From contig CAWKCK010000007.1 of NCBI GenBank assembly GCA_963848135.1, positions 68,121-132,120 of the forward strand: 64,000 bases of DNA, written 5' to 3'. Position numbers: made by a program. Below are positions 36,001 through 39,000 of this stretch, piece after piece; position 1 is the stretch's first letter; each line of letters begins with the position of its first letter. Source of the stretch: an uncultured delta proteobacterium. Its GTDB lineage: Bacteria; Desulfobacterota; Desulfobacteria; Desulfobacterales; SG8-13.

Positions 36001-39000
36001 TATGGCGAGCGCATTGAACTTTGGCGTGGAAAAATGACATGAAAGTGGACCTTCACTTCTTTGTTTTTCGTAAAAACCAGCGCCATGGATAAAAGCAAAG
36101 CGTACATCCGCATGTGCGATCGCGCTGAAGAAATCCAGTGCCTGTGGAAACCGGCGCATGGCGATTTTTACGCCGAAGCGAATGGTCAGGTCCGATGCTG
36201 GATAACCATGAGCCCACCACCTGAGCGTTTCAAAAAGGGTTTCGGTATTTGCGTAAACAACGGTATTATTCACCTGTCGAAGTACACCTGGTTGCCCCGG
36301 CAGGACCAATTGATCGAAATGGCCCAAGTACCGGGTCGCCGATACGAAAGTGTGATCCAGGATTTCTTCGACTGGACGAAGCGGCCGTATGGTATCGGCC
36401 CAGGCAATCCCGGTCGCCTATTCAAAACCATGGAAAAAATCTGGCTGGTCTTTGTTATGCAGCAGAAAATCAATCGGTTTTGGGATGGAGATGCCTGGGT
36501 AAGAGGATCTCAACCGGCTTGACACCGCCCAGTGAAAAAAAACCATTTATGAATGGCCATTCAATCGTCCAATCGACTTTTCACGAATGGACACTCTCTC
36601 GGTAAATGAATGGCTCAATGGAAATCCTGGCCTTTCCGCCGCAACATACCTGGCCTATCCGCCGCAACATAATGGAACACTATTTTGACAACCACTGTAA
36701 CCAAAAGGCTTGATCAAAGCGATAATCATGTGATTTAGTTAGTGTCCGTCCATAAATGGCTTTTTTTCGCTGGGTCCCGCCATGGCGGGATCATCCGCAG
36801 GTTTCCGGCTGCGGTGTACGAAAAGTACACCTCGCCGCAAACCTTTGTGCGGCCTTGCCCAGTGAAAAAAATTCTCATTTATTAACTGGACACTCAATCG
36901 TGCGATCTATTTTTCGTGGATGGGCACTAACTATCCCAAATTCGGCACAGATTCTGATCATGATGCGTGAGGAAAGGAATTTTAATGATTTACATCGGTG
37001 AGTTCTTTCATCTGACCAATCAGGAAGAAATTGAAGAGCGCGATCGTAGACACGGGGAATTCAATCTGATCGTTGATGCCCCGGATAGCCAGACGGCAAT
37101 CAACAAGTTTAAGCAGAGAATCATCGAATTTCGGCAGAAAAGCGAATTCTTCTCGGGAGACTGCAAGATTTTTTTCATCCGCCTGTTGGAGTTCCAAAAT
37201 TTCCCTCAAATCAAAGCTTTGATGCTGAATTACAAGTCGACGGTTGGAGATCCACTGGTACCCTTCATCGGCTGCACCATCCCGTCTGACCAGGCCAATG
37301 CCTGCCGCATCTATAATTGGAAGGACAATGCACCGGAGATCGACGGAAAGAACGAGAACCTTTTTATCGAATTCAAGGGAGAAATCAAGCAGATCGATTG
37401 AATCGGTTTTTCTGGCAATCGGCGCTGGATCGACGGTTCCCGGCAGAGTTACCCGGAGAAAAGCCAGATCCGCAAACCGTGTGATGAGAAACGGCCGCAG
37501 GACTTATCTTTTGTACACCACCGGTCCGCCCGTGGATGAGAGGTTCTCAAGAAGCAGGGTTCTTAATTTATGCGAAAACGCTTGGGGAACGGGATTTGCG
37601 GTCATGCTTCCGCATAAGTGGATGGTCGTCTTGAGCGTTGCGAGGCAAATCTTACAGGCGGCGCAGCGCTCGATATGTGACTCGATTTCATTGCATGTCG
37701 CCGGATCCAACTCACCATCGATATATTCGGACAGCTTCTCAAACATCGCCACGCAGTGCTTATGGTCGCGTTCATCACGTGCCATGTTCAAAATACCCTT
37801 TTAATTTATCCCGCAGATACAGCCGTGCCCTGTGGAGTCTGACTTTCACGTTTGAGCGCTTCAAGTCGAGTATCTGTGCCGTCTCAACCGTTGAAAATCC
37901 TTCTATATCCCGCAGGACGACGATCACACGGTACTTTTCCGGCAATGAGAGTATCGCATCTTTCAGATGCTGGAAAAGTTCTTCGTTCAATACCTGATCC
38001 AGAGGCAATTGGGCCCAATCGGGGATGTCGTTTGGTCCTGTCGCATCTTCTTCCGGAAAGAAGTCTTCCAGGGAGAGTTCCCTCTCGGGAGCGAATTTGG
38101 ATTTTCTGCGTTTTTTTATGCAAATACTTGCGGCAATTCTATAAAGCCAGTTTTTGAACTTTGTTTCGTATCTGAAATCTTTGAGGTACTTGAAGACATT
38201 AAAAAATGTATCCTGCACGACATCTTCGGCATCGCAGGCATCCCCGCACATTCTCAATCCAAAATTATACAACTTCTGCTCGTATCGTTTCACGAGCTCC
38301 TGAAAATACTCGTGCCGGCCTGAATTGATGGCCTCAATCAGTTCGGTATCCCTGTCCTTTATCTTTTTCCGGTTCCGGCTCGAAGTCATGATTTTTTTTT
38401 CTTGTCACCTGACAAGCATCGCTCATTCAGGTTGAAACGCCCATTTTCGGCAATAGGTAAGCCTGCAGAAAAATCCACACGCCGATCACTGCCAATAATA
38501 TCAGCATTTCGTTCATATGCTCTCCTCCCTATGTATAAGAAGTCCCATGCCGGATGTCCACTTTCCAGCGGTTTAACGGCTTTGCTATTGGCTCGAAAAT
38601 GGCCATAAGAATACATTTTGTCATTCGAACGTTTTTTTCACCAACCACTTATGCACCCTTGCGGATATCGGAATTTATTTTTGAAAAGCGGTAAAAAGCC
38701 AACCTTTTCCTGCAATCATGACGCTATTCCGATTGAACGGTCTCATATTTTTACGCGGCATGCAATGCCGGGTTCAAAAATCTGCGGGTAGAGAACCACT
38801 AATGGTTTTTCGGTTACATACAAATTCAAGCAATGACCTTGGCTTTATAGAGCCGCAGACTGTTGCCAACGACCGAAATGCTGCTGAAAGCCATGGCCAG
38901 AGCGGCCATAATCGGATGGAGCTGCCGCAGAAAATGCGGCAGGCTCTCGAAGGGGTTGAGGATGCCGGCGGCGATCGGGATGAGAACGACGTTATAACCG

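Follow-up and report, generated by a model that had tools for sequence, protein, structure and literature searches.

A probable small membrane selenoprotein of a catalogued family, encoded ahead of an ECF sigma factor and a zinc-type anti-sigma factor in Desulfobacterales

In classical SECIS genes, such as fdhF, and in the SelB-bound selAB operator, a hairpin presents a G and a U in a small apical loop. The hairpin described here resembles these elements in lying just past a UGA, inside a coding region and beside a translation start, where it could act as an operator; it differs from them in serving a membrane peptide of ~60 residues and in standing 4–16 nt before another gene in another frame. 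The downstream genes recall the SigR–RsrA thiol-stress module: the anti-sigma factor is likewise a soluble protein of about 85–95 aa with an invariant C...H-x3-C-x2-C and a zf-HC2 match, RsrA is its best NCBIfam match, and a thioredoxin gene adjoins the unit in Planctomycetota. Unlike in that module, there is a third conserved gene, encoding a U/C-x4-C membrane peptide whose recoded tail, in Desulfobacterales, crosses the start of the sigma gene, and the anti-sigma factor is no RsrA equivalog, since it scores 31.4 bits with the RsrA model (TIGR03988) against a cut-off of 62.5. The peptide family itself is named six times, as a known family, in Data S1 of PMC12013277 (Xiao & Zhang 2025), which refutes the statement of an earlier note on this DNA that it is missing from the lists of selenoprotein families. 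Judged by eye, with no alignment run, the catalogue entries are alike and carry Sec at the same place, reading M-K-E, TM helix, ..LLQAYILPKLGI[ST]TU-M-R-x-A-C-QVTSK.., almost as in one of our loci (L015), with the distant entries keeping ..ILPRLGV-x-TU-x4-C. Beyond the name and the sequences, a search of the literature found nothing in print on topology, SECIS analysis, gene context or function; nor does the name occur in the main texts of PMC9312934, PMC5029168 and PMC2398784, in Table S1 of PMC12013277, in the table of a 2022 review or in other searchable papers. The family is already catalogued, though uncharacterised, and what is new may be its gene context.

The peptide gene occupies positions 38334–38516 on the minus strand of the window, that is, of the whole 64,000-nucleotide stretch of DNA that was analysed. 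Its 60 codons and terminal TGA (38334–38336) are laid out as 29 amino acid codons, an in-frame TGA at 38427–38429 and a further 30 codons. The deduced product begins with M-N-E and a predicted TM helix (residues 4–22; 38451–38507, minus strand), recognized as a hydrophobic stretch, in which W14, Q18 and L22 are nearly invariant in alignment A2; it then reads LPKMGVST-U-MSDAC-QVT, with selenocysteine as residue 30, and ends in a Lys-rich tail. The Cys codon at U+5 (38412–38414, minus strand), partner in the U-x4-C pair, falls within the 5' arm of the hairpin. Downstream of the single TM helix, all family members share the core P-x-x-G-x-x-T-[U/C]-x4-C. Its P, G, T, U/C and C do not vary across phyla, the W and L of the peptide hardly do, and the Cys at U+5 to U+7 is invariant in alignments A2, A3 and A6. 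The C-terminus probably resides in the cytoplasm, an orientation read from the Lys and Arg residues after the helix rather than from a computed topology. The gene is preceded by a Shine-Dalgarno sequence, GGGAGGAG (38522–38529, minus strand). The arrangement proposed earlier, with a single helix followed by LPKMGVST-U-MSDAC and a tail read across the start of the sigma gene, was borne out, the SECIS being located inside the peptide's own coding tail.

Reading of the UGA at 38427–38429 as selenocysteine is well supported by comparison of the gene copies. The in-frame TGA is present at this position in 150 of 150 copies, which are kin and thus not independent (loci L112, L116 and L156, outside the motif pattern, were left out), whereas terminal stops vary, with 70 TGA, 58 TAA and 20 TAG (n = 148; L157 and L158, cut by contig ends, were excluded from length and stop counts). 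A Cys follows in every copy, at U+5 in 143, at U+6 in 6 and at U+7 in 1, and all seven insertions between U and this Cys are of 3 or 6 nt. The invariant Cys, the exclusively in-frame indels and the in-frame spacing to the sigma ATG constitute a coding signal in the tail after the UGA; part of the apparent protein conservation past the U may reflect RNA constraint, since the hairpin arm encodes A-C-Q-V-T. The genome possesses tRNA-Sec as well as selB (374 bits) and selA (622 bits), both over their cut-offs. Because 282 of the 301 phylum genomes carry selA, its co-occurrence has no discriminating power for Sec dependence; four peptide-positive genomes have no selA match, and all four carry tRNA-Sec at 70–74 bits. 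A Sec codon is classically proven by homologues with Cys in place of Sec, and in this family Cys aligns with Sec in homologues that keep the same downstream Cys.

The SECIS-type hairpin extends over nt 13–30 after the U (38400–38417, minus strand) and, in the window copy, has six pairs, an AGGU loop and a folding energy of −6.9 kcal/mol. On 146 distinct sequences, 82.7% of 1022 cells are paired and four of the seven pairs have changed on both sides (89 cells), a covariation score reached by 0 of 500 shuffles, with slid controls 30.6–63.6% paired. At pair 12–25, 81 sequences have CG and 43 have UA; at pair 15–22, UA stands in 96 and CG in 33, and a synonymous UGU/UGC exchange goes together with a Thr/Ala exchange encoded by the opposite arm. 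By this covariation, and by the quite different hairpins that divergent family members display in the same position, the hairpin is under selection, and the corresponding claim of the earlier note holds on the larger set. When the window's 71 nt were folded alone, no signal was obtained (z −0.09), the minimum free energy structure differing from the claimed hairpin.

The family is widespread in the order and beyond it. Within the order, 124 of 151 genomes have a match, this genome included, which reproduces the previous count of 123 of 150, and every listed match has an in-frame TGA. Phylum-wide TGA retention was likewise recovered, with matches in 121 of 301 genomes, the listed ones carrying the TGA except for one partial match that stops short of the Sec site. 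Neither Pfam nor NCBIfam yielded a match to the peptide at E ≤ 1, and a single-sequence search of the protein database retrieved one protein, both as noted before; a profile search, however, retrieved 1919 database representatives at E ≤ 0.001, so the asserted practical absence of the family from protein databases was not borne out. Gene callers truncate the selenopeptide gene or read its TGA as W or G. Among the best 150 of the 1919 representatives, 64 have Cys at the U column and 46 are stubs ending in ..ST. No Cys forms were detected in the order (151 genomes) or the phylum (301 genomes), though the query carried C at the U position. In all, 17 Cys-form loci were read; of the best 80 of 417 loci found with the 20-row alignment A4, 53 are Sec forms and 27 Cys forms. 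Sec and Cys forms are present in Planctomycetota, Acidobacteriota, Myxococcota and other phyla, which overturns the picture of a family confined to Desulfobacterota. As regards the earlier evidence for Sec, TGA retention stands, whereas the Cys homologues of other phyla had been missed. Since Cys forms exist in several phyla, hosts that lack Sec could serve for work on the Cys form.

In this genome and in about four of ten copies of the order, the peptide gene is the first cistron of a unit that continues with an ECF sigma factor and a soluble ZAS anti-sigma factor. The sigma gene (37775–38389, minus strand; 204 aa) matches TIGR02937 with 110.4 bits (cut-off 42.9), and its regions Sigma70_r2 (PF04542, 56.6 bits) and r4_2 (PF08281, 56.8 bits) exceed their cut-offs. 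Its ATG, in the +1 frame, is at 38389, 40 nt downstream of the U and 10 nt downstream of the hairpin. The anti-sigma gene (37504–37791, minus strand; zf-HC2, PF13490, 41.1 bits, cut-off 22.2) overlaps the end of the sigma gene, its likely start being the ATG at 37785, and the residues C3, H29, C33 and C36 do not vary among the 56 sequences of alignment A5. Both the geometry of the sigma start and the HxxxCxxC-type anti-sigma gene agree with what was described before. Within the order, 51 of 121 peptide copies have a sigma gene directly behind them, a share close to the 12 of 26 loci reported previously; elsewhere it is 2 of 20. Of 54 loci, 52 place the sigma ATG at 34, 37, 40, 43 or 46 nt from the UGA; in the remaining two, the sigma ATG overlaps the peptide stop as ATGA. 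About 44 nt before the peptide ATG lies a promoter-like bipartite motif, TGGACA and TTATACA separated by 16–17 nt (38532–38560, minus strand). TGGACA at a median of −44 occurs in 35 of 54 sigma-linked loci versus 5 of 93 unlinked ones, and the complete bipartite pattern in 19 of 54 versus 1 of 93 (mean 0.28 in shuffles); by this distribution, the promoter-like motif is specific to sigma-linked loci. A sigma-70 scan of positions 37300–38900 gave 2 sites versus 2.0 expected, neither of them at the conserved motif. A 317-nt contig from an RNA library, with 6 differing letters and 1 gap, spans 38245–38560, from upstream of the peptide into the sigma gene; because RNA libraries can hold DNA and the contig shows no single transcript, it does not, in our view, prove co-transcription, and no sequencing run contains half of the stretch's words.

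The same three genes are linked differently in other phyla. In Planctomycetota the order is sigma, anti-sigma, peptide, the latter mostly in its Cys form, with no overlap between sigma and peptide genes, so that the link appears to be first of all functional and not translational. Among the best 80 of 417 loci, a homologue of the ZAS anti-sigma gene starts 377–800 nt upstream of the U/C codon on the same strand in 12, the sigma gene preceding it in 5 of these; in three more loci the anti-sigma homologue is farther off, at 1.3–2.8 kb, and two of these three also have a sigma homologue. In Planctomycetota the unit is flanked by thioredoxin and YgaP-like TM genes. Other neighbours of the same 80 loci are those of sulfide/persulfide clusters (CstB or Blh persulfide dioxygenase-rhodanese, TauE, SQR), namely MBL+rhodanese (23), TauE (14) and Pyr_redox_2 (9), beside thioredoxin (7), Sulf_transp (4) and DsrE (3); these counts come from a sample dominated by Planctomycetota, with our own ORF calling and Pfam searches on one representative per cluster. 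A difference is that the titles and abstracts listed in a literature search on such clusters mention no small U/C-x4-C membrane peptide. Neighbours of the sulfide/persulfide type were not seen in the window's own order. There, 70 of 121 copies have no sigma gene beside the peptide and are accompanied instead by a TAT Fe-S protein with a membrane protein, a P-type ATPase, MobB or HD, and because these neighbours vary, no single function follows from context. The orphan family from the catalogue now comes with testable leads: Cys forms, two gene orders in two phyla and sulfide/persulfide clusters.

The joint explanation that we favour, with a probability of roughly 0.8, is a selenoprotein gene whose UGA is decoded with the aid of a SECIS, which belongs to a Sec/Cys family, serves as the first cistron of a sigma operon and would have a redox or stress role. 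There are hints that the peptide takes part in sensing of thiol, sulfur or metal stress. The U-x4-C pair probably lies on the cytoplasmic side of the membrane, where it would work as a selenol/thiol pair with redox activity. More tentatively, and at somewhat less than even odds, the peptide might be functionally tied to the sigma/anti-sigma pair, either by joining it in sensing or by being the chief product of the regulon, in a circuit responding to thiol, sulfur or metal stress. A complex prediction for the anti-sigma factor and Cys-form peptide of locus L244 (alignments A5 and A6) scored 0.00, which speaks neither for nor against binding. If the sigma link is real, a selenoprotein would here form part of a signalling module, which is rare, and soluble ZAS anti-sigma factors would gain a membrane partner.

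A peptide for metal handling, whose U/C-x4-C binds Cu, Hg or Cd at the membrane while the sigma/anti-sigma pair answers metal stress, would suit a heavy-metal P-type ATPase gene (HMA, E1-E2_ATPase) directly upstream of the peptide here, such ATPases adjoining the peptide gene in 11 neighbour ORFs of 150 copies (8 upstream, 3 downstream), as well as the HlyD-type (12) and AcrB-type (8) efflux neighbours among the best 80 of 417 loci. We nevertheless consider it unlikely, because the sulfur/thiol neighbours of these loci are commoner, the window's ATPase is broken into three frames and the four-residue spacing differs from the usual CxxC metal site.

The overlap of peptide and sigma genes raises the issue of translational coupling. 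For peptide starts the anti-SD duplex has a median of −7.9 kcal/mol and reaches −6 or lower in 78% of 148, compared with −5.8 kcal/mol and 30% for sigma starts. The sigma start lacks a well-placed Shine-Dalgarno sequence, the only SD-like stretch before it being the AGGUGA of the hairpin loop, 11–17 nt from the ATG. It is conceivable, if slightly against the odds, that sigma translation depends on ribosomes translating the peptide gene; that such coupling would report the selenium supply is a good deal more doubtful. In the stronger version, sigma translation would be set by whether Sec is inserted or translation ends at the UGA, or by SelB sitting on the hairpin 10 nt before the sigma ATG, and the operon would be a selenium gauge, a reading for which the weak sigma starts, the SD-like stretch within the loop and the narrow spacing in 52 of 54 loci (with ATGA in the other two) can be adduced, as can the precedent of Escherichia coli, where a SelB-bound SECIS-like element represses selAB translation. 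Such gating is improbable, given that it is impossible in the Planctomycetota gene order with its mostly Cys forms, that 70 of 121 order copies have the hairpin without a sigma gene and that the conserved spacing may reflect overlapping coding constraints and shared descent. Still harder to credit is the full circuit, in which the selenopeptide would be the missing membrane sensor, its selenol/thiol pair relaying thiol, sulfur or selenium stress from the membrane side to the soluble zinc anti-sigma factor while Sec efficiency, through the sigma start just behind the SECIS, sets the sigma level, so that selenium and redox state are measured together.

A pure leader peptide, acting only in cis on the sigma gene and with a functionless product, would account for the first-cistron position, the strong Shine-Dalgarno sequence and the overlap with the sigma start, yet it is very improbable in view of an amino acid sequence conserved across phyla, the 70 of 121 copies that stand alone and the Planctomycetota copies downstream of the regulators. 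We give hardly any credence to the TGA being a true stop, with a 29-residue micropeptide and a regulatory or terminator-like hairpin: gene callers end there, leaving the ..ST stubs in the database, and the window's own hairpin is weak, but the TGA is kept in all 150 copies while terminal stops use all three codons, homologues have Cys codons at the U column, indels are in-frame only, the hairpin covaries and the genome has the Sec machinery. Equally remote is a lipoprotein-type signal peptide with Sec/Cys as the lipidated +1 residue, for although the invariant U/C comes a few residues behind a hydrophobic helix at the N-terminus and G-[IV]-S-T-U is lipobox-like, the lipobox consensus calls for an uncharged region with G, A or S at −1, whereas Thr is invariant at −1 in the selenopeptide, Lys or Arg follow the helix and the mature part would comprise just ~30 hydrophilic residues.

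Open reading frame inspection and Pfam/NCBIfam scores bear out, in window coordinates, the anatomy that an earlier note had described for the membrane selenopeptide and the two genes behind it. The peptide ORF starts at 38516 on the minus strand with a strong Shine-Dalgarno sequence (GGGAGGAG), and its N-terminal part consists of M-N-E, a hydrophobic helix and LLPKMGVST, followed by a TGA at 38427-38429; read-through beyond this codon yields MSDACQVTRKKNHDFEPEPEKDKGQGYRTD, up to a second TGA at 38334-38336. The ATG of the ECF sigma factor gene (38389, minus strand) lies 40 nt past the U of the first TGA, in the +1 frame, and the 204-aa product matches TIGR02937 at 110.4 bits (cut-off 42.9). 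The anti-sigma gene, on the same strand, overlaps the sigma gene at its end. It is a 95-aa ORF with an H-x3-C-x2-C motif and a zf-HC2 match of 41.1 bits (cut-off 22.2), and its top NCBIfam match, RsrA, stays below the model's cut-off (31.4 vs 62.5 bits). The peptide itself has no Pfam or NCBIfam match at E<=1. Taken together with the comparisons described below, the window carries a real, well-supported selenoprotein gene, with a recoded UGA, a SECIS element in the coding tail, a U/C-x4-C motif behind one transmembrane helix and an operon shared with the sigma and anti-sigma genes.

Of the selenocysteine machinery, the genome encodes tRNA-Sec, selB (374 bits) and selA (622 bits). With the peptide carrying C in place of U as the query, matches were found in 124 of the 151 Desulfobacterales genomes (own genome counted) and, for a phylum-wide sample of 301 Desulfobacterota genomes, in 121, and the previously reported in-frame TGA was present in every listed match of the order and the phylum, save one partial match that stops short of the site. 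We retrieved 151 loci, comprising every hit within the order and the best ones from the phylum. Three did not fit the motif pattern and were left outside the counts; the remaining 148 loci contain 150 copies, and all 150 have the TGA in this position. Further on, the read-through frames end in TGA (70), TAA (58) or TAG (20; n=148), the spread expected of real stops. The downstream Cys is at U+5 in 143 copies, at U+6 in six and at U+7 in one, the insertions between U and Cys being 3 or 6 nt long, and the full peptides comprise 44-73 residues (median 54, n=148), with the start codon 29 residues ahead of U in 129 of 148 copies. Four genomes that are 93-99% complete (G258, G280, G288 and G411) carry the peptide gene and tRNA-Sec at 70-74 bits, but selA was not found in them even at E<=0.001. 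In two genomes (loci L030 and L039), the peptide gene is tandemly duplicated ahead of sigma, with two copies 225 nt apart, the upstream one differing in its tail.

The selenoprotein family is not new: contrary to the earlier note, which held it to be practically absent from the lists of selenoprotein families, it is named in Data S1 of PMC12013277 (Xiao and Zhang, 2025), where the entries seen share the helix and the motif ..ILPKLGI[ST]TU-M-R-x-A-C-QVTSK.. or ..ILPRLGV-x-TU-x4-C... Neither name nor motif occurs in Table S1 of that paper or, by text search, in the main text and table of a 2022 review (PMC9312934), in PMC5029168 and PMC2398784, or in any searchable main text. BSepDB (PMC13326102) counts 111 families. 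We found no published account of the family's topology or function, of its SECIS and Cys forms, or of its context; among papers that mention ECF sigma factors, selenocysteine and anti-sigma factors together, none is on this topic by title or abstract. What remains of interest is the occurrence of Cys forms across several phyla, the trio with sigma and ZAS-type anti-sigma factors, conserved in two gene arrangements, the neighbourhoods of sulfur-handling genes and the sigma start just behind a SECIS.

Folded alone, the 71-nt segment from the window gives a z-score of only -0.09 and a minimum free energy structure other than the hairpin. The case for the hairpin comes from comparison of 150 sequences (146 distinct) anchored on the Cys codon and scored for a helix of seven pairs closed by a 4-nt loop. 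Of 1022 cells, 82.7% are paired, and 89 cells are altered on both sides (for instance, 81 sequences have CG and 43 have UA at pair 12-25, and at pair 15-22 the counts are 96 for UA and 33 for CG). The covariation score is reached by none of 500 shuffles, and pairing in slid controls is 30.6-63.6%. Where the Cys codon wobbles between UGU and UGC, the opposite arm changes with it between ACA and GCN (Thr/Ala), which indicates selection on the RNA and not on the protein alone. Because this arm encodes A-C-Q-V-T, conservation of 'CQV' is in part an RNA footprint. Divergent family members have quite different hairpins at the same place, and the Cys is retained even there.

The family is also far from 'practically absent from protein databases', as had been stated. 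A single-sequence word search retrieved one protein, with G at the Sec place, where the gene call may have read TGA as Gly; a profile of 82 peptide cores, searched against 1.84 billion representatives, gave 1919 proteins at E<=0.001. Among the best 150 of these, the U column holds Cys in 64, W in 26 and G in two (TGA read as a residue in both cases), and R, S or K in five; another 46 are stubs ending at ..ST, and seven fall outside the motif pattern. Public gene calls (P0003-P0151) mistreat the family in three ways, as TGA stubs and with W or G at the Sec place. Back-translated patterns yielded 17 Cys-form loci, and the Cys-form alignment as query led to 417 confirmed loci in species-representative genomes, the best 80 of which comprise 53 Sec and 27 Cys forms. 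The loci are from Planctomycetota (Kuenenia MAGs and two isolates among them), Acidobacteriota, Myxococcota, one Gemmatimonadaceae MAG, Syntrophobacteria, Geobacteraceae and Desulfuromonadaceae; the products are annotated as hypothetical at the source, and no Pfam or NCBIfam family was found for either form. Both forms share an invariant core (P23, G26, T29, U/C30 and C35), and W14 and L22 are almost invariant. Folding 3' of the codon is stronger in Sec than in Cys forms (median z -1.03 vs -0.21; Mann-Whitney p = 0.002, a value overstated since kin are not independent). One Cys form from a Planctomycetales MAG (L172, about 1545-1590) has a strong SECIS-like hairpin past the Cys codon (-20.9 kcal/mol) and may have changed from Sec to Cys recently.

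For copies followed by 700 nt or more of sequence, a sigma homologue lies directly behind the peptide in 51 of 121 within the order and in two of 20 from among the best hits in the phylum's other orders. The distance from U to the sigma ATG is 34 nt in 10 loci, 37 in two, 40 in 33, 43 in six and 46 in one, always in the +1 frame; in two loci, the ATG stands at 53 nt and overlaps the peptide stop as ATGA. Anti-SD duplexes have a median of -7.9 kcal/mol at peptide starts (78% at or below -6), -5.8 at sigma starts (30%) and -2.5 at random positions (13%). The sole SD-like stretch ahead of the sigma start belongs to the hairpin loop (AGGUGA, 11-17 nt upstream of the ATG), and we infer that sigma translation probably leans on ribosomes reading the peptide gene. 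About 44 nt ahead of the peptide ATG, a promoter-like motif (A-run, TGGACA, 16-17 nt, T-A-T-A-like) makes the peptide gene the leading cistron of a unit of its own: TGGACA is present in 35 of 54 sigma-linked vs 5 of 93 unlinked loci, and the bipartite pattern in 19 of 54 vs 1 of 93 (shuffle mean 0.28); it is not among the sites of the sigma-70 scan. In the window, a nine-A run (38391-38399, minus strand) separates hairpin and sigma ATG; it has one extra letter in one RNA-library contig from a close relative and is not kept at other loci. The +1 frame is open into sigma from 25 nt past U, and that a +1 slip at the run would fuse the membrane peptide to sigma is pure speculation.

Elsewhere, the same trio is arranged differently. 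Among the best 80 of the 417 loci, which come from other phyla, a ZAS anti-sigma homologue lies upstream of the peptide on the same strand in 15, and in 12 of these (11 Cys forms and one Sec form) it starts 377-800 nt ahead of the U/C codon, which makes it the direct upstream neighbour in the loci inspected. A sigma homologue precedes the anti-sigma gene in seven loci, five of them among the 12, and follows the peptide in one further locus; in L244, a thioredoxin gene lies ahead of sigma, and in the three loci tested a YgaP-like transmembrane protein (PF11127, 43-47 bits) stands behind the peptide. In an alignment of 56 anti-sigma sequences, C, H, C and C are invariant. That the genes stay linked across phyla although their order is rearranged speaks for a functional tie among the proteins and against SECIS overlap as the reason for linkage.

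Lys/Arg past the helix and the Lys-rich tail would place U-x4-C at the cytoplasmic face, on the side where the soluble anti-sigma factor also resides. In this position the selenol and thiol could join in a selenenylsulfide, or the pair could capture sulfane sulfur or a soft metal, and the module might answer thiol, sulfur or metal stress. We tentatively favour the sulfur/thiol reading, at a probability of roughly 0.35-0.4. Within two genes of the peptide in the same 80 loci, mostly from Planctomycetota (own ORF calling, BLAST clustering, Pfam on one representative per cluster), MBL-fold proteins with two rhodanese domains, of the persulfide-dioxygenase fusion type, occur in 23 (directly upstream in 19 ORFs), TauE/SafE in 14, HlyD-type genes in 12, Pyr_redox_2 in nine, AcrB-type genes in eight, thioredoxin in seven, ArsR-type HTH in four, Sulf_transp/DUF6691 in four and DsrE in three; by titles and abstracts, MBL-rhodanese fusions and TauE belong to sulfide/persulfide detoxification. 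A response to metals appears unlikely, and gating of sigma by selenium is rather improbable. In the order, the neighbours upstream of the peptide are variable and include heavy-metal P-type ATPases (11 ORFs, the window's included), MobB (11) and HD-domain proteins (7).

Also upstream in the order, in 28 copies (21 sigma-linked), is a Pfam-less membrane protein behind a TAT-signal 4Fe-4S protein. The membrane protein (about 160-190 aa, ..FGQMPIFKRYYIADIPGLGW..; L012, L016, L017, L038 and others), paired with the TAT-signal 4Fe-4S dicluster protein, has a coding end that overlaps the promoter-like motif of the peptide-sigma unit. The window's ATPase (38826-41278, minus strand) is split into three overlapping ORFs in different frames, with two HMA domains (40910-41278), a middle piece (40225-40956) and the E1-E2/hydrolase part (38826-40373), all on the minus strand; the two frame breaks imply a pseudogene or assembly indel errors.
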